DNA of 10,490 bases from contig JBDKSP010000037.1 in the NCBI GenBank assembly GCA_039680575.1, positions 1 to 10,490 on the forward strand, in the 5' to 3' direction. This DNA is from Armatimonadota bacterium (GTDB taxonomy: Bacteria; Armatimonadota; UBA5829; DTLH01). Each line of letters begins with the position of its first letter. Within the stretch, counting starts at the first letter, position 1. Under the pieces are notes generated by a model. The model worked only from the letters and a program-made list of their open reading frames with translations. It had not been told where the DNA came from and ran no database searches. This document shows, in pieces, positions 4,599-10,490 of the stretch. Made by a program: the position numbers and the translations under genes.

Positions 4599-4644
4599 AT
4601 TACTGAATTTTTGCGATTTAAATTGTTAGCAATGGAGGCAATTG

Positions 4645-7329
4645 TTGAATACGGATAATGAGAAACTACCGAAGGTGTATGATCCCTCCCAGGTAGAGGA
4701 TAAATGGTACGCTTACTGGCTGGACAAGAAGTATTTCCACGCCGAAATCGACCCTTCGCATGAAAATTATTGCATAACTATCCCTCCGCCGAACGTGACT
4801 GGGTCGCTTCACATGGGGCACGCGCTCTGCTATACGATTCATGATGTCCTCGGGCGGTGGAAGCGCATGAAAGGGTTCAATACCCTCATCCTGCCGGGAA
4901 CCGACCACGCCGGAATCGCAACTCAGAACAAAGTTGAGCAGCAGTTGGCCAAAGAAGGGCTGACCAGGTTCGATATAGGACGGGAGAAGTTCCAGGAGCG
5001 CGTCTGGAAGTGGAAAGAGCACTACGGCGGCACGATCATAATGCAGTTCAAGCGCCTCGGATGCTCCTTCGATTGGGAGCGCGAGCGGTTTACGATGGAC
5101 GAGGGCTACGCCGACGCGGTGCTGGAAGCGTTCGTCAAAATGTTCGACAAAGGCTACATCTATCGCGGCGCGCGTGTCGTAAACTGGTGTCCGCGCTGCC
5201 ATACGGGGATTTCGGACCTCGAAGTCGATTATGAAGAAGAAAATTCGCACCTCTGGTTCATCAATTATCCGCTGGCGGACGGCTCCGGATATATCCAGGT
5301 GGCAACAACAAGACCAGAGACGATGCTCGGCGATACAGCAGTAGCTGTGAACCCGGAAGATAAGAGATATATGCAGTGTATCGGCAAGACTGCGATCCTG
5401 CCGATTGTAGGCCGCGAAATCCCGATTGTGGATGACAGTTTCGTTGACCCTGAGTTCGGTACCGGCGCTGTGAAGGTCACACCGGCGCACGACCCGAATG
5501 ACTACGAGATCGGACAGCGGCACAACCTGCCTCAGATCGTGGTCATCGGACCCGAAGGCAAGATGACCGACGAGGCTGGGAAATATGCAGGTGTCGACCG
5601 TTACGAAGCACGAAAACGGATCGTCGAAGAGTTGAAAGAGAAGGGACTTCTTGCGAAAATAGAGGATTATACCCACTCGGTCGGCAAGTGCGAGCGGTGC
5701 GGAACGACAATCGAGCCGCTTCTTTCCGAGCAGTGGTTCGTCAGGATGAAGGAACTTGCCCAGCCCGCGATAGACGCGGTTAAAGACGGCAGAGTGCGCT
5801 TCGTCCCGGACCGCTACACCCGGATTTACCTCGACTGGATGGAGAATATCAAGGACTGGTGCATCTCCCGGCAGCTCTGGTGGGGCCACAGGATCCCGGT
5901 CTGGAAATGCGCGTGCTGCGGCGAGTATTTCGCGTCGAAAACATCCGTCGATGCCTGCCCGAAGTGCGGTTCGACGAACATAGAACAAGACCCGGACGTG
6001 CTGGACACCTGGTTCTCGTCGGCGCTCTGGCCTTTCGCTACTCTCGGCTGGCCGAAAGACACGCCGGAGCTTAAAAACTTCTTCCCGACGAACGCGCTCA
6101 TCACGGCAAGGGATATCATCTACCTCTGGGTAGCCAGGATGATCTTCCAAGGCCTGCAGTTTATGGATAACGTCCCGTTCCACGACGTTTACATCTATGC
6201 GACAGTGCTGAACGAGGAAGGCCGCCGCATGTCCAAGTCGCTTGGGACCGGCGTTGACCCGCTCGACCTGATAGAGCGGTTCGGTTCGGATGCGCTCCGC
6301 TACGCGCTCATCCAGCAGGCCGGAATGGGTCAGGACATGCGCTTCTCGGACTCCAGAGTCGAGAACACACGGAACTTCGGCAACAAGATCTGGAACCTCT
6401 CTCGGTTCGTCATGATGAACCTGGAGGGGTTCGATTTTGAGAATACCCGCGCCGCCTACGGTGACGGCTTCGGCAGCAAGCAGGCCGAAGCAACGGGGCT
6501 GAAGCTCGAAGACAAGTGGATTCTTTCCCGGCTGAACCGTGTGGCAAAGATAGTCAATGACGGATTTGCCAACTACGATATGGATGACGCGGCGAGATCG
6601 CTTTATGACTTCCTGTGGAGCGAATTCGCAGACTGGTATGTCGAGCTTGCCAAGCCGAGGCTGCGGACGGATGAGCGGGAGCATGTCCAGTATATGCTCT
6701 GGCACGTGCTCGAGACCTCCATGAGACTCCTGCACCCGATAATGCCGTTCATCACGGAAGAAATCTGGCAGGCGCTGCCTCACGATGGCGAAAGTATAAT
6801 GGTCGCTCCGTTCCCGGAGGCAAATGAGTCCTTGATCGACGACGAAACAGAGCAGCAGATGACAGCGGTTATGGAATCCGTAAGGTTGATCCGAAACCTC
6901 CGCGCCGAAGTCGGCGTCGCTCCGAGCAAGAGCGTCAATATCGTGGCTGTCTCGGACAATCCTGAGATGAGAGAGCTGTTGAAAGCAGCTGCGGATGGGA
7001 TTAAGTCGCTCGCAAGAGTCGAAGAGCTCGAGATAGCGTCCGAATCACCCTACGAGGACAAGGGGCAGTATGTCTCGGCACACACTGCAGGGTTCAGCGT
7101 CTTTATGGCGGTAGCCGGGCTGATAGACATCGAGAAAGAGACGAAGAAGATCGCCGCTGAGATCGCATCCATCGACAAAGACCTCGCGCGCGTGAACGGA
7201 AAGCTTTCAAATGAGAAGTTTCTTAAAGGCGCGCCTGCTGAAATCGTCGAAAAAGAGCGCCGCATCCAGGCGGAGCTTACGGACAAGAAATCGAAGCTGG
7301 AAGAACGGTTGAACGCTGTCAGCGGTTAG
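4645..7329 (+). CDS. valS: Valine--tRNA ligase
   Basis: Motifs PPPNVTGSLHMGHA (HIGH), GTDHAGIATQ, ATTRPETMLGD, GTGAVKVTPAHD (editing domain), WCISRQLWWGHRIP, DVLDTWFSS and RMSKS (KMSKS), plus a C-terminal coiled coil (KLSNEKFLKGAP). Tandem TTG codons at 4642 and 4645; spacing from the GGAGG at 4634-4638 favours 4645. Confidence 0.98.
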   Translation: MNTDNEKLPKVYDPSQVEDKWYAYWLDKKYFHAEIDPSHENYCITIPPPNVTGSLHMGHALCYTIHDVLGRWKRMKGFNTLILPGTDHAGIATQNKVEQQLAKEGLTRFDIGREKFQERVWKWKEHYGGTIIMQFKRLGCSFDWERERFTMDEGYADAVLEAFVKMFDKGYIYRGARVVNWCPRCHTGISDLEVDYEEENSHLWFINYPLADGSGYIQVATTRPETMLGDTAVAVNPEDKRYMQCIGKTAILPIVGREIPIVDDSFVDPEFGTGAVKVTPAHDPNDYEIGQRHNLPQIVVIGPEGKMTDEAGKYAGVDRYEARKRIVEELKEKGLLAKIEDYTHSVGKCERCGTTIEPLLSEQWFVRMKELAQPAIDAVKDGRVRFVPDRYTRIYLDWMENIKDWCISRQLWWGHRIPVWKCACCGEYFASKTSVDACPKCGSTNIEQDPDVLDTWFSSALWPFATLGWPKDTPELKNFFPTNALITARDIIYLWVARMIFQGLQFMDNVPFHDVYIYATVLNEEGRRMSKSLGTGVDPLDLIERFGSDALRYALIQQAGMGQDMRFSDSRVENTRNFGNKIWNLSRFVMMNLEGFDFENTRAAYGDGFGSKQAEATGLKLEDKWILSRLNRVAKIVNDGFANYDMDDAARSLYDFLWSEFADWYVELAKPRLRTDEREHVQYMLWHVLETSMRLLHPIMPFITEEIWQALPHDGESIMVAPFPEANESLIDDETEQQMTAVMESVRLIRNLRAEVGVAPSKSVNIVAVSDNPEMRELLKAAADGIKSLARVEELEIASESPYEDKGQYVSAHTAGFSVFMAVAGLIDIEKETKKIAAEIASIDKDLARVNGKLSNEKFLKGAPAEIVEKERRIQAELTDKKSKLEERLNAVSG

Positions 7330-7443: not shown

Positions 7444-9876
7444 TCAGCTCTTAATTACCACAACCACTTCGGCTTTTTCGCCTTTCGGGAGGACCGGAAG
7501 GACGTTTCCTGCCACTTTTTCGCCGTTCATCTCTATATCGAGAGGTCCATGCTGAACATGACCCGGATTTTTGACCTCGATCTCATAGGTCGCGCCCCGG
7601 TACCGGCGGGTGATCTTGTAGCCGTCCCAACTGCTTGGGATGCACGGGTCGAGCATCAGCCCATCATAAGTCGGGCGGACGCCCAGTATCCAGTCGATCC
7701 CATCTCTGAACATCCAAACGCCTGAACCTGTAAGCCATGAATGGCTCGCCTGGCCGAATGTCGGGTGGTCGGGGCTCGTGACGTATTCCGAATAGACATA
7801 AGGTTCCATCTTGTAGATGTCCGGGTCTGCGGCCTGGACTATCGGCAGGCACTTTCGGTACCACTCGTAAGCCTTGTCGCCGTTTCCGAGGACGCACTGC
7901 GCAAGTATCCCCCAGCTTGCCGGATGGTTGAATATCGCGCCGTTTTCCTTCTTGCCAGGGACGCATCTGGTGGCGAGCCCGACGCCGGGATCGACCTTCG
8001 TATAAGCCGGGTGGAGCATCTTCGGTCCGCGAGAGGTGCTGAGCATCTGCCAGGCTGATTCCATGCACATCTTAGCGCGGTCGGGTGGGGCGATTCCGCT
8101 TATTACCGCCCAGGTCTGGGTGTTCAGGAAGATTCGGCCTTCCTCGTTCTTGCTCGAGCCGATCACCCCGCCGTCGTCCCGTGTCCCTCGGATATACCAC
8201 TCGTCGTCCCAGCACAGCTCGTTCAGCGCTGCGGCGATCTTGTCGTATTCGACCCGGTATCTTTCAGCTACAGCAGAACAACCTTCTTTCTGTTCCCTGT
8301 TCTTTGTCACCTGTTCCCTACCGAGCAGCCCTATCATCTCTCTTAAGATGAAGCACAGGAACTCGGCTACCCACATGCTCTCACCGATGCCTTTCCGGCC
8401 TACATAATCGAGGGTGTCGTTCCAGTCGCCGGGCCCGAACTTGGGCAAGTGGTTCGGAGTGAGGTTCGAAAGGGTGTAATCGACCGCACGGATGATGTGG
8501 TCCAGCACATCGGCAGGTTCTCCGCCGTCCTGGAAGCAGACCCCGCGGTCAAGGAACGCAAAATCTCCTGTTTCCCTTAAATAGGTCATCACCGCAAGCG
8601 GCAGCCAGAGCGGGGTGTCTGAGTGCCCGGTCTTTTCGCCCTGCCCGGTCAGCTTGAAGTAGTTGTGGAGCGTGCTACCGTCCTGGAACTGGTGCGATAT
8701 GACTTCGGCTACCCGGTCTGCGACTTCGTTCGGCTGAGAGAGGATCGGTCCCATCATGTCCTGGGACTGGTCCCTGATTCCGACGCCGAACAGAAGCCCG
8801 CCGTGATAGTAACCGGCGTTCCGGTTCATATTGAATGTCACCCAGGACTGCCGCATCCCCCAGGCGTTCAGCATAATGTTCATCTCATTGTCCGGGGTCT
8901 CAACATGAATAGGAGAAAGATAATCGTCCCACCAGTTTTTCACGCGGTCAAGCTCGACTTTTGCCTTCTCAGGCTCGATATATTTCGAAACTATCTTCTG
9001 CGCATTTTCCCGATAGTTTTCGACACCGGTCACGCCGAGCAGAACGGTGAATTCTATGGACTCTCCCGGTCCCAGGACTATCTCGGACTGAAGCGCGCCG
9101 CAGGCGTCTCCTGCTGTGATGTTGGTGTTGCTGAGTTTCCCTTTTTCTATTCCCTCAGGGTTGGACTCACTCCTCCACCGTCCGATGAACTCATCTTTCA
9201 GCCCGTCCCAGCCTGATACCGGCAGCGTAGTCGTGAAGAACACATACTTGTCCCAGCCCTGGTTCGGCTGCTCAACGGAGACGCCCCGGTTCGTCACCCA
9301 GTAGTTCTTGGTGGCATAGAGAGTGTTGTCATTGCGCTCGAAATTTACGATGTTGAAGTGCTGGTCGTTCGGCTGGTTGATGAGGTCTATCAGCGCGTGC
9401 CCGAGGCACAGCTCGACATAAGAGAATATCAAGAGTTTCCGCACCTTGTCGGTGTTGTTCGTGAGCTTAACGAGCCATATTTCCAGGTCGTCATCCTGCG
9501 GGACGAAGTAAGTTATCTCTCCGCGCAGTCCCCGGCGCTCCGTGGTGATGGTCGTATAGCCCATGCCGTGGTGGCACTCGTAGAAATCGAGCTTGCCGGG
9601 TGTCGGCTGCCAGGAAAGCGACCAGTAGTCTCCGTCTTCCTCGCGGACATAGACATATCGTCCCGGCCTGTCCCAGGGAAGGCTGTTATACCTCCAGCGG
9701 GTTATCCGGGAGTCGCGCGGGTCCATCCAATAGCTGAATCCGCCGGCGGCGTTAGTGATAAGCCCTGTGTAGCGTCCGTTCGATATATAATTGACCCACG
9801 GCGCCGGTGTGTCAGGCCGTGTGATGATAAATTCCTTGCTATCCTCTGAGAAATGTCCGTAATCTTCGAGCCGCAT
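7444..9876 (-). CDS. GH94 glycoside phosphorylase (cellobiose/chitobiose phosphorylase-like), substrate unassigned
   Basis: 810 aa with an ATG start and AGGAG SD. Motifs ITRPDTPAPWVNYI, CHHGMGYT, GIRDQSQD, catalytic GDWND, PGKKENGAIFNH, EPYVY, SWLTGS, ILGVRP..LDPCIPSSW and RGATYEIEVKNP. Confidence 0.93.
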   Translation of the reverse strand: MRLEDYGHFSEDSKEFIITRPDTPAPWVNYISNGRYTGLITNAAGGFSYWMDPRDSRITRWRYNSLPWDRPGRYVYVREEDGDYWSLSWQPTPGKLDFYECHHGMGYTTITTERRGLRGEITYFVPQDDDLEIWLVKLTNNTDKVRKLLIFSYVELCLGHALIDLINQPNDQHFNIVNFERNDNTLYATKNYWVTNRGVSVEQPNQGWDKYVFFTTTLPVSGWDGLKDEFIGRWRSESNPEGIEKGKLSNTNITAGDACGALQSEIVLGPGESIEFTVLLGVTGVENYRENAQKIVSKYIEPEKAKVELDRVKNWWDDYLSPIHVETPDNEMNIMLNAWGMRQSWVTFNMNRNAGYYHGGLLFGVGIRDQSQDMMGPILSQPNEVADRVAEVISHQFQDGSTLHNYFKLTGQGEKTGHSDTPLWLPLAVMTYLRETGDFAFLDRGVCFQDGGEPADVLDHIIRAVDYTLSNLTPNHLPKFGPGDWNDTLDYVGRKGIGESMWVAEFLCFILREMIGLLGREQVTKNREQKEGCSAVAERYRVEYDKIAAALNELCWDDEWYIRGTRDDGGVIGSSKNEEGRIFLNTQTWAVISGIAPPDRAKMCMESAWQMLSTSRGPKMLHPAYTKVDPGVGLATRCVPGKKENGAIFNHPASWGILAQCVLGNGDKAYEWYRKCLPIVQAADPDIYKMEPYVYSEYVTSPDHPTFGQASHSWLTGSGVWMFRDGIDWILGVRPTYDGLMLDPCIPSSWDGYKITRRYRGATYEIEVKNPGHVQHGPLDIEMNGEKVAGNVLPVLPKGEKAEVVVVIKS
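8291..8318. repeat. Degenerate heptamer tandem repeat inside the GH94 CDS
   Basis: TGTTCCC-TGTTCTT-TGTCACC-TGTTCCC, encoding REQVTKNREQ. Confidence 0.6.
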
Positions 9877-9912
9877 TTAAGTCTCCTAAACAAACCTGTT
9901 GTTGACAGGGCA

Positions 9913-9921
9913 ATTGTAGCA
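9913..9921 (-). promoter_or_regulatory. Extended -10 promoter candidate for the GH94 gene
   Basis: Minus strand TG-C-TACAAT, 36 nt upstream of the ATG. The -35 is weak. Confidence 0.5.
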
Positions 9922-9949
9922 CAGAGGCAGAAAACAGGGAACAGAGGGA

Positions 9950-10023
9950 GTAAGAGTTCACACTTAACGAGAGATTGTACATCAACCTGAATAACCAACA
10001 CGTCATCATGGAAGCACGTCACC
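9950..10023 (+). mobile_element. Second IS66-type terminal repeat, interrupted by the IS110 insertion
   Basis: GTAAGAGTTCACACTTAACGAGAG matches 2006-2029 GTAAGAGTTCACTCTTGGCTAGAG at 20/24, with the first 12 identical. Confidence 0.55.
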
Positions 10024-10054
10024 CTTGTATCTTAAAACTATGCTAAAGTAAGAA

Positions 10055-10200
10055 TATCTATGGAGCGGCAATAGGCCGATTCACCCTTGGACCATAGAGT
10101 CCGTAGTTCAGTAAGGGTCGTTGCCGCTTCTCCTATAATACGAGCCCGAACAGTTGCCTGGGACAAGAGTCCGCATCATATGCAAGGATGGGCCGTTAAG
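10055..10200 (+). ncRNA. Putative IS110 bridge RNA (target-binding loop and donor-binding loop); boundaries approximate
   Basis: Loop 1: stem GAGCGGCAAT/GTTGCCGCTT (10063-10072/10120-10129), large internal loop, apical GGAC-cataga-GTCC. Loop 2: stem GCCCG/TGGGC (10144-10148/10189-10193), large internal loop, apical GGAC-aaga-GTCC. The loop strands match the flank and the element end. Confidence 0.8.
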
Positions 10201-10212
10201 GAGCAAATTAAT

Positions 10213-10368
10213 ATGAATACCATTTATGTCGGCATTGATGTTTCCAAAGATAATCTCGATGTTGGGTTGACTCAATCCACTTCGATAAGGCGATTTACCA
10301 ATACCGCTGAAGGCATAACCCAGCTGAGAGATTGCCTGACTCAGTTTTCCCTGCAGCTAATAGTACTA
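10213..10368 (+). pseudogene. IS110 DEDD recombinase, N-terminal 52 codons, disrupted by IS630
   Basis: MNTIYVGIDVSKDNLDV...RRFTNTAEGITQL...LIVL with an AAGGAG SD. The sequence switches at the codon where the catalytic Glu is expected. Confidence 0.88.
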
Positions 10369-10490
10369 GTGTTCTGTAAAGTTGAATCATTTTGCTTCTG
10401 TACTCGTATATACAGGTATGAAACATCAAGTCTATTTAAGTAACGAGCAACGCTCGCACCTTGGAAATATGATAAGCTCGGGTCGTGACT
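10369..10490 (+). mobile_element. IS630-family element left end inserted at a TA; runs off the window
   Basis: Junction C-TA|GTGTTCTGTAAAGTT; IS630 elements target TA, often within CTAG. It is followed by an IS630-like ORF start. Confidence 0.7.
10418..10490 (+). CDS. IS630-family transposase N-terminus (partial)
   Basis: MKHQVYLSNEQRSHLGNMISSGRD resembles the 'V.L(S/T).E(E/Q)R..L..(L/M)I..G' start of IS630 transposases. Only 24 codons are visible. Confidence 0.65.
   Translation, partial: MKHQVYLSNEQRSHLGNMISSGRD

Follow-up and report, generated by a model that had tools for sequence, protein, structure and literature searches.

The window, a stretch of 10,490 nucleotides that makes up contig C37 of a 122-contig draft assembly broken at repeats, raises the question of what is encoded by the non-coding DNA lying between a multi-copy genomic repeat and the start of a truncated recombinase gene. 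An earlier note, made from the letters alone, had read this DNA as a bridge RNA of the IS110 family whose guides match the adjacent DNA. We are strongly confident that positions 10026 to 10212 are the left non-coding end (LE) of an IS110-group insertion sequence and that this end encodes an IS621-type bridge RNA. All features described here lie on the forward strand and are given in window coordinates.

The place of insertion is defined by the flank. The left part of the multi-copy intergenic repeat, which provides the target context, occupies 9950 to 10023, as judged from repeat matches and from contig depth, which goes up about 30-fold across 9943–10023 in contigs of the sequencing runs. The 26 bases 10000–10025 recur eight more times in the genome, the similarity ending at 10025–28. 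A looser search located 41 further look-alike repeat sites; after ...CACCCT none of the 41 reads TGTAT and the majority read GAAC or TGAAC. Contigs from three sequencing runs share the left flank, depart at 10025–27 and continue GAAC.... The end of the flank similarity and the departure of the run contigs thus place the element exactly after the CT core dinucleotide at 10024–10025, and the left end proper begins TGTATCTT. The left ends of relatives likewise begin CT-TGTAT, so that flank, run contigs and relatives agree on the boundary at 10024 that had been proposed. Uninterrupted copies of the repeat read ...CGTCACC-CT-GAACT. The 12-mer TCACCCTGAACT has 57 perfect sites in the genome, where 0.4 would be expected from composition, and CACCCTGAAC is present in 86 copies. 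The next letters are TTGATTCAGGGT in 32 of these 86, forming a palindrome with ACCCTGAA, which puts the target within the stem of a REP-like element. The element has therefore entered a REP-like repeat, ...CGTCACC-CT-GAACT..., at its CT. Other insertion sequences are also located in the same genomic repeat.

The bridge RNA core, comprising the target-binding and donor-binding stem-loops, extends from 10059 to 10199, as delimited by its fold, an RNAalifold consensus of relatives, the model derived from that consensus (R1) and covariation. It is encoded by the left end, and the recombinase ATG at 10213 follows directly downstream. The minimum-free-energy fold of 10059–10199 consists of two stem / internal-loop / hairpin units. 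The 5′ strands of the target-loop outer stem (10062–72) and inner stem (10074–77), together 10062–10077, find their partners in 10116–10130, where the inner stem (10116–19) is followed by the outer stem (10120–30); fold and covariation both define these helices. The target loop is capped by the hairpin GGAC-CATAGA-GTCC (10089–10102, paired 10089–92/10099–102), whose pairs covary. In the donor loop the 5′ strand of the outer stem (10140–10147, from the fold and the RNAalifold consensus) pairs with the 3′ strand at 10190–10196, and the capping hairpin GGAC-AAGA-GTCC sits at 10161–10172 (paired 10161–64/10169–72), with covariation again in agreement with sequence and fold. The strings, their positions and the two stem/internal-loop/stem units given in the earlier note were all found again at the same coordinates. 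The z-score of the fold of 10059–10199 is modest at −2.46, with 4 of 200 shuffles folding equally well, and for the longer stretch 10020–10213 it is just −1.32. A scan of 9850–10490 against Rfam 15 gave no matching family, the matches being chance snoRNA/U4 ones alone with E ≥ 5.

The RNA had also been described as compact and without an extra 5′ hairpin. This is plausible on a weak test: ahead of the two loops we predict no convincing 5′ stem-loop in the window's left end, just a 5-bp A+T-rich stem in 10030–10053 that would sit partly upstream of the expected RNA start. Among relatives the 5′ hairpin is absent in locus L020 and G+C-rich in L023 and L019. A missing 5′ stem-loop is no bar to membership, since the published consensus, as described in the text available, was drawn from diverse orthologues.

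The internal loops carry the sequences that identify the RNA. In the target loop the left guide ATTCACCCT (ATTCACC-CT, 10079–10087) matches the flank CGTCACC-CT (10017–10025) at seven of nine positions, contiguously through the CT; its last 7 nt are the flank's TCACC-CT. The right guide, AGTTC-AG (10105–10111), is the reverse complement of the CT-GAACT of the uninterrupted repeats. The two target halves are thus present as TCACC-CT in the sense direction (10081–87) and AGTTC-AG in the antisense direction (10105–11). In IS621, as far as the available text of PMC11208160 describes it, the left guides pair the bottom strand and the right guides the top strand, with the core part of each. When the 187-nt left end was shuffled 200,000 times, TCACCCT followed by AGTTCAG within 60 nt came up 5 times; the proposed match of left target half and core to the adjacent DNA is therefore unlikely to be due to chance. 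The second 7-mer, AGTTCAG, had not been recognised as target in the earlier note, which left the right half as either GAACT or TACTG. The former holds, as the repeat reads CT-GAACT with its 57 perfect 12-mers; TACTG is ruled out by the uninterrupted repeats, which read GAACT after the CT. None of 82 repeat copies shares the AT with which the left guide opens (CG stands there in 62 of them), so the effective left target guide is 7 nt and not 9. Comparison with flanks and empty sites, suggested at the outset, gives TCACC-CT-GAACT from uninterrupted repeats, fitting the target guides, and the target specificity TCACC-CT-GAACT is in this way confirmed by empty sites in the same genome.

Two other readings of this region have to be weighed against these matches. 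The structured region might merely be a 5′ leader through which translation of the recombinase mRNA, or its stability, is controlled, with flank matches arising by chance. Its position directly upstream of a ribosome-binding site (AAGGAG, 10198–10203, 9 nt before the ATG) and the modest thermodynamic z-score would suit such a role, and small RNAs were once thought to modulate expression of the ISPpu9 recombinase, according to work cited in the available text of PMC11208160. Both target halves, on the right strands and in the right order, arise in just those 5 of 200,000 shuffles, which speaks against a leader, as does the behaviour of the relatives (below). Alternatively the left end may simply have captured a piece of the genomic repeat, the similarity being repeat DNA and no guide. 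The repeat is indeed very abundant, with its 86 CACCCTGAAC sites, and it houses other insertion sequences too. The two halves in the RNA are nevertheless non-contiguous and of opposite sense (10081–87 and 10105–11), they flank a conserved hairpin, and the scaffold around them is common to elements of other phyla that carry other targets in their loops. Capture of a repeat would not lead to such a layout, and we find this reading scarcely credible.

Relatives were collected by a six-frame search with the 51 recombinase residues through 401 genomes of the phylum, which gave 10 other genomes; the upstream regions yielded a 7-sequence alignment, and from its RNAalifold consensus R1 was built. The consensus of the seven has the same two-loop shape. 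R1 scores 106.9 bits on the window, whose sequence is part of the training set, and it also finds non-training relatives (L014 at 65 bits, L020 at 55.6 bits, and others). Matches occur in 15 of 151 phylum genomes, the window's own genome included, where the window's copy is the sole match. A pattern for the donor loop only is found at 123 or more places in species-representative genomes, and the matches listed come from Dehalococcoidia, Gemmatimonadota, Nitrospirota, Burkholderiales, Armatimonas and others. When 80 loci with the donor-only pattern were fetched out of these at least 123, 79 gave a full-length R1 match, target loop included, with scores of up to 101.6 bits. Over its 51 residues the window's recombinase fragment is 33–53% identical to the proteins of the donor-loop loci, with a match at all in 22 of the 80. 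A DNA search with 10024–10365 in 60 related genomes gave no match outside the window's own genome, and exact-pattern scans of JGI metagenome contigs gave 0 matches. The suggestion that the guide set may be uncharacterised is not contradicted by these searches as regards the set as a whole; its donor loop, with at least 123 matches, is common.

Covariation was assessed in two alignments, A3 and A4, both of which were fitted to the model structure in a manner that favours pairing. A3 holds 29 sequences, with 91.5% of cells paired and double changes in 26 of 30 pairs; no shuffle out of 500 reached as high, and slid controls gave 31–41%. For the 73 distinct sequences of A4 the corresponding values are 93.7% and 20 of 30 pairs, again none of 500 shuffles came as high, and slid controls gave 31–45%. 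The slid controls and the independent finding of the 80 loci argue that the covariation signal is real. In A4, whose 73 distinct relatives come from many phyla, all nine target-loop outer-stem pairs show double changes. The donor-loop letters of helix 5 are invariant in five of eight pairs; the target-loop stems vary with compensation. Covariation in both alignments and the consensus of the seven relatives thus bear out the proposal that the two-loop structure is conserved among homologues.

In the donor loop the string ACAGTTGC begins at 10150. The left donor guide ACAGTTGCC (ACAGTTG-CC, 10150–10158), read from the sequence and from relatives, predicts a right end that finishes ACAGTTG-CT. 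The right donor guide lies at 10178–10186, within which ATGCAAG (10180–86) is complementary to the element end CTTGTAT (10024–30) at all seven positions, counting one G-T wobble. The right half of the donor, CT-TGTAT, can be seen directly and is paired as the earlier reading had it. A discontiguous pairing is an alternative, in which CAAG pairs with CTTG, two bases are skipped and AUA pairs with TAT; a nine-on-seven discontiguous guide pattern is mentioned for IS621 in the available text of PMC11208160. Among relatives (A/G)CAAG is conserved, and ATATAAG is found where the left end is CT-TATAT.

The element's own right end is absent from the assembly, in which a TTGACA...ACAGTTGCT-GAAC junction fits none of the 17 ACAGTTGCT sites, and the ACAGTTG-CT reading is hence drawn from relatives. 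In 68 of the 80 loci CT-TGTAT stands upstream of the same donor loop, and in 62 of the 80 with CCGAACAGTTGCC the string ACAGTTGCT (ACAGTTG-CT) follows 0.7–1.7 kb downstream. Both ends are present in 57 of the 80, 1,108–1,321 bp apart. Changes in the left donor guide go along with changes in the right end: ACAGTTG, ACGGTTG, ACAGCTG and ACAGTAT are the four variants, each present in both places of its own element. By analogy the missing right end of the window's element would finish TTGAC(A/T)-N6-ACAGTTG-CT. The ninth letter of the left donor guide is C and not T (ACAGTTGCC against ACAGTTG-CT), a mismatch shared by L020 and L023. This mismatch would vanish in a different donor register, with the core CT of the left donor guide at 10158–59 and a right end of ...CAGTTGC-CT; the window reads ACAGTTGCCT, which permits a perfect ...GC-CT. 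We consider that register very unlikely, as the right ends are ACAGTTG-CT in L020, L025 and L026 and in the 62 loci with the same string, and the CT of the target loop likewise has one extra base before the hairpin stem. The register ending in ACAGTTG-CT is the one used below.

The relatives also permit the guides to be compared with the flanks of many elements. One relative, in a complete genome, has nine copies, and its guide GGGTCATCC-CT equals or nearly equals the flank of each. Across the 57 elements with both ends, a strict test finds an exact guide match to both own flanks in 22, compared with 45 of 3,072 mismatched pairings. It fails in 35 of the 57; the failures include guides with one mismatch, and the test scores the right guide solely after a left match. 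A 5′ leader would not be expected to have loops that track the flanks of each element, which differ between relatives (the 22 of 57 above), or a left donor guide that co-varies with the right end; taken with the ordered target halves, these properties make that reading extremely improbable.

No complete sigma-70 site was found in 9880–10370, that is in the integrated state. A −10-like hexamer, TATCTT, lies at 10028–10033 and is the commonest hexamer at this place of the left end among relatives (36 of 57). In 49 of the 57 elements TTGA[CT]N occurs 6 nt before the right-end guide match, together with TANNNT at left-end positions 3–8; once the ends are joined, these promoter halves stand 17 nt apart. 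For IS621 the available text of PMC11208160 describes a promoter built by excision, across the RE-LE junction of the circle, and the putative split promoter of the window's element fits this idea.

By extension from the relatives and from the IS621 mechanism, as set out in the available text of PMC11208160 (Durrant et al. 2024) and PMC11208158 (Hiraizumi et al. 2024), excision of a circle would join the −35 of the right end to TATCTT (10028–33) and so switch on the RNA. Bound by a recombinase tetramer, the RNA would pair the repeat with one loop and the circle junction with the other, and strand exchange would follow after the CT, aided by handshake positions 10112–13 and 10187–88. According to the portion of PMC11208158 available, the two bases after each right guide pair positions 6–7 of the other DNA after exchange and must not pair with their own DNA. 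Applying this rule, the target-loop handshake positions would be 10112–10113, UA here and CA in uninterrupted copies from two sequencing runs of another study, X2 and X3 (10112 T>C), and the donor-loop positions are predicted at 10187–10188, GA. Given the predicted right end ...TG-CT, U10112 would face G7 as a wobble and A10113 would face T6; the C at 10112 in the X2/X3 copies would make a full pair with the predicted G7. G10187 would face C7, the last C of TCACC in the target, with which it can pair. Neither first handshake base would pair with its own cognate position 7, given the same right end. The handshake letters thus appear to agree with the predicted right end.

The closest characterised system is IS621 of E. 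coli, compared here by its published description in the text available. As in IS621, the left end carries the RNA ahead of a recombinase gene, here a putative DEDD one, and the RNA has two stem-loops with internal loops. Left guides are sense and right guides antisense, each including the CT core, with the left donor guide assigned from relatives. Of the two loops, that for the donor varies less among elements than that for the target. A repeated extragenic sequence serves as target in both systems, the promoter would be divided between the two ends and put together at the RE-LE junction (the −35 half of the window's element being predicted from relatives), and putative handshake positions come after the right guides. 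The T-G-T of the window's right donor half also fits the published dT10 and dT12. The two differ in that letters 6–7 of the left donor are predicted to be TG here, whereas IS621 has A and T, and in the length of the right target guide, here 7 nt (5 plus core) and in IS621 four bases. The window's RNA moreover lacks a convincing 5′ stem-loop, and its core is shorter, about 141 nt where IS621 has 177 nt. Neither the window's left end nor a relative, used as queries, showed DNA similarity to complete E. coli genomes in distant mode.

Closer still in sequence are the IS110-group relatives with CCGAACAGTTGCC...GCAT...CAAGG. They share the donor ACAGTTG-CT-TGTAT (the window's right end being predicted), a donor loop that is 87–91% identical in DNA, the scaffold and, by prediction, the split promoter, and differ in having other target loops and other targets. 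ISPpu10 and ISPpu9 of Pseudomonas putida, known here by description in the text available, are likewise IS110-family elements inserted at one conserved intergenic or REP sequence, but have different hosts and sequences. Elements of the IS1111 group, with their seekRNA, use recombinases of this family too and follow the two-specificity logic as well, as far as PMC11208160 sets it out in the available text. Their RNA is in a long right end, however, with long subterminal inverted repeats there. The location of the RNA in the left end thus indicates that the window's element is not of the IS1111 group.

The RNA described here is then a naturally occurring bridge RNA, one more from an IS110 subfamily that is widespread and whose mechanism has already been described for IS621. 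For biology at large it changes little, as mechanism, REP-like targeting and wide spread are already published. It does provide a worked natural example from Armatimonadota, with a full 12-bp target backed by 57 empty sites, and it illustrates that a reading of raw sequence made without tools is able to identify a bridge RNA along with its boundary and the two halves of its target. The 57 complete relatives, with one donor and many targets, form a data set from which rules of natural retargeting and handshake pairing could be derived.

The recombinase gene itself begins at 10213 with MNTIYVGIDVSKDNLDV... and is truncated after its first 51 codons (10213–10365), as seen from the reading frame and from alignment with PF01548. 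The 51-residue fragment aligns with profile positions 1–43 of PF01548; at 13.9 bits (E = 0.046) it falls short of the cut-off of 29 bits, a weak score explained by just a third of the domain being present. The truncation leaves no room for a PF02371 domain. Both PF01548 and PF02371 are found in relatives that carry the same RNA. A word-based protein search with the 51 residues, aimed at longer relatives, returned none, and HMMER against 1.84 billion representatives gave nine weak matches, mostly fragments, with a best E of 3.8e-7.

The frame stops at a CTAG site (10366–10369) that was entered by a second insertion sequence, an IS630-like element whose left end (10369–10490) runs off the contig edge. 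The same 124–127 nt are found at four other contig ends, and all five copies in the assembly are preceded by CTA. The window's copy of the IS110-group element is dead, its recombinase being cut after codon 51 by this IS630-like element. IS630 elements have a DDE_3-type transposase and terminal inverted repeats, duplicate TA and prefer CTAG. Assignment of the interrupting element to this family is tentative: the name used in the earlier note is consistent with its CTAG site, and Pfam searches with the element's short peptides of 24–31 residues produced no domain match. The assembly does not contain the element's interior. A DDE_3 fragment at the end of contig C98 belongs to a different element. 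Alone among the contig ends, that of contig C14 holds a candidate for the element's other terminus, with 18 similar letters; it was rejected as the far side of the insertion, since the flank there does not continue the recombinase frame.

An uninterrupted form of the gene exists in runs X2 and X3. A contig matches 10016–10369 with two changes and reads through the CTAG (...GTACTAG/AGGCC), and the frame continues LEATGGYEAAV in the 30 letters read beyond 10369, a normal continuation for this enzyme family. The contigs with the uninterrupted copy are 1,184 and 1,447 nt long. Their depth, 30.1 against 9.45 in X2 and 12.3 against 4.45 in X3, hints at several copies; contig depth is not copy number.

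Might the element still move in this strain with the help of an intact copy that failed to be assembled and acts in trans? A draft of 122 contigs with breaks at repeats could lose such a copy, the uninterrupted copies of X2 and X3 exist, and bridge RNA works in trans according to the available text of PMC11208160. Against this, a search of the assembly turned up no cognate recombinase gene outside the window's element: the single match of PF02371, and likewise of PF01548, is to an element on contig C20, the gene of which carries an in-frame stop. In run X1, from which the assembly probably derives, no contig was seen to pass through 10369, bearing in mind that contigs can drop rare variants. 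Mobility in trans is thus unlikely, and we treat the window's copy as inactive. The search for the rest of the present element thus led to this unrelated C20 element alone, which R1 does not match at E ≤ 1.

The divergence of the recombinase fragment (33–53% identity) leaves some room for a distinct system. It is tempting to picture an orthogonal, unusually compact bridge system that combines a standard donor loop with a recombinase N-terminus at most 53% identical to any relative found, no 5′ stem-loop, a 7-nt right guide, 12-bp specificity and, in intact copies, a ready handshake base; we regard this as doubtful. If the intact copy of X2 and X3 is active, it would offer a distinct scaffold for programmable recombination, together with a natural experiment in which one donor is combined with dozens of natural targets across phyla. 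A further run, X4, holds just a small share; its 151-nt contig of depth 2 hints at a relative with another right target guide and is no evidence of habitat.

Two contigs from a soil metagenome run (X4) resemble parts of the bridge RNA in the window. One, of 151 nt and low depth, aligns with window positions 10066-10195; its scaffold is kept and its right-guide region altered. The changes are a deletion at 10105, a C inserted after 10107, 10109 C>G, 10112 T>C and 10114 A>T, so that the region would read GTCTG-AG-CA. The other shares 10142-10178 with the window and then continues CGCAAGG. Both look like natural relatives carrying other guides. Paired matches to R1, the bridge-RNA model built from the window and its relatives (a 7-sequence alignment), were also observed. 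Two of them lie head to head within 400 bp at L132:1676-2054, and one Nitrospinales chromosome (L105 and L106) holds two copies in opposite orientation, about 3.6 kb apart. Pairs of this kind might allow the DNA between the copies to be inverted or excised.

The genome from which the window derives holds another, different IS110-group element of about 1,162 bp on contig C20 (locus L011:1260-2432). Its left end starts CT|TGTAT, as does that of the window element, and its right end is TTGACA-N6-ATAGAAT-CT. No match to model R1 was found in the C20 element. The CCCGAAG in its first loop is the reverse complement of its own right flank, CT-TCGGG. The recombinase frame runs for 275 listed residues to an in-frame TAG, beyond which the same frame still encodes the conserved C-terminal motif.

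The REP-like repeat at window 9950-10025 belongs to a family with about 86 places in the same genome, and many contigs of the assembly stop within it. The repeat unit is ...AACCA(A/G)CACGTCACCCTGAAC... and often occurs in tandem, in two to four copies spaced by about 21 bp. The units are followed by palindromic tails of one of a few types, TTGATTCAGGGT in 32 of 86 and TAAGGAGTTTCA in 16 of 86. The 3′ part of a DDE_3 (PF13358) transposase gene sits at the end of contig C98 (14700-15335). The terminal sequence of this element is one of the tails found elsewhere after CTGAAC-TA, thus at least one more insertion sequence lies within the repeat family.

The insertion sequence that interrupts the recombinase gene (window 10366-10490) is also found at the ends of contigs C3, C67, C73 and C76, and a possible second end of it lies at the end of C14. 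It is always directly preceded by CTA, and its target site is therefore CTAG. The element starts GTGTTCTGTAAAGTTG and opens the frame MKHQVYLSNEQRSHLGNMISSGRD; its interior is absent from the assembly. In the likely source run, X1, contigs of the element reach about 12-fold the depth of single-copy DNA, which is a contig depth and not a copy number. A same-genus genome (G001) holds two copies with 86-90% identity, each at a contig end.

Elsewhere in the window, very long open frames of 895 residues (4642-7329, plus strand) and 705 residues (4666-6783, minus strand) overlap on opposite strands; one of the two is presumably a shadow frame.
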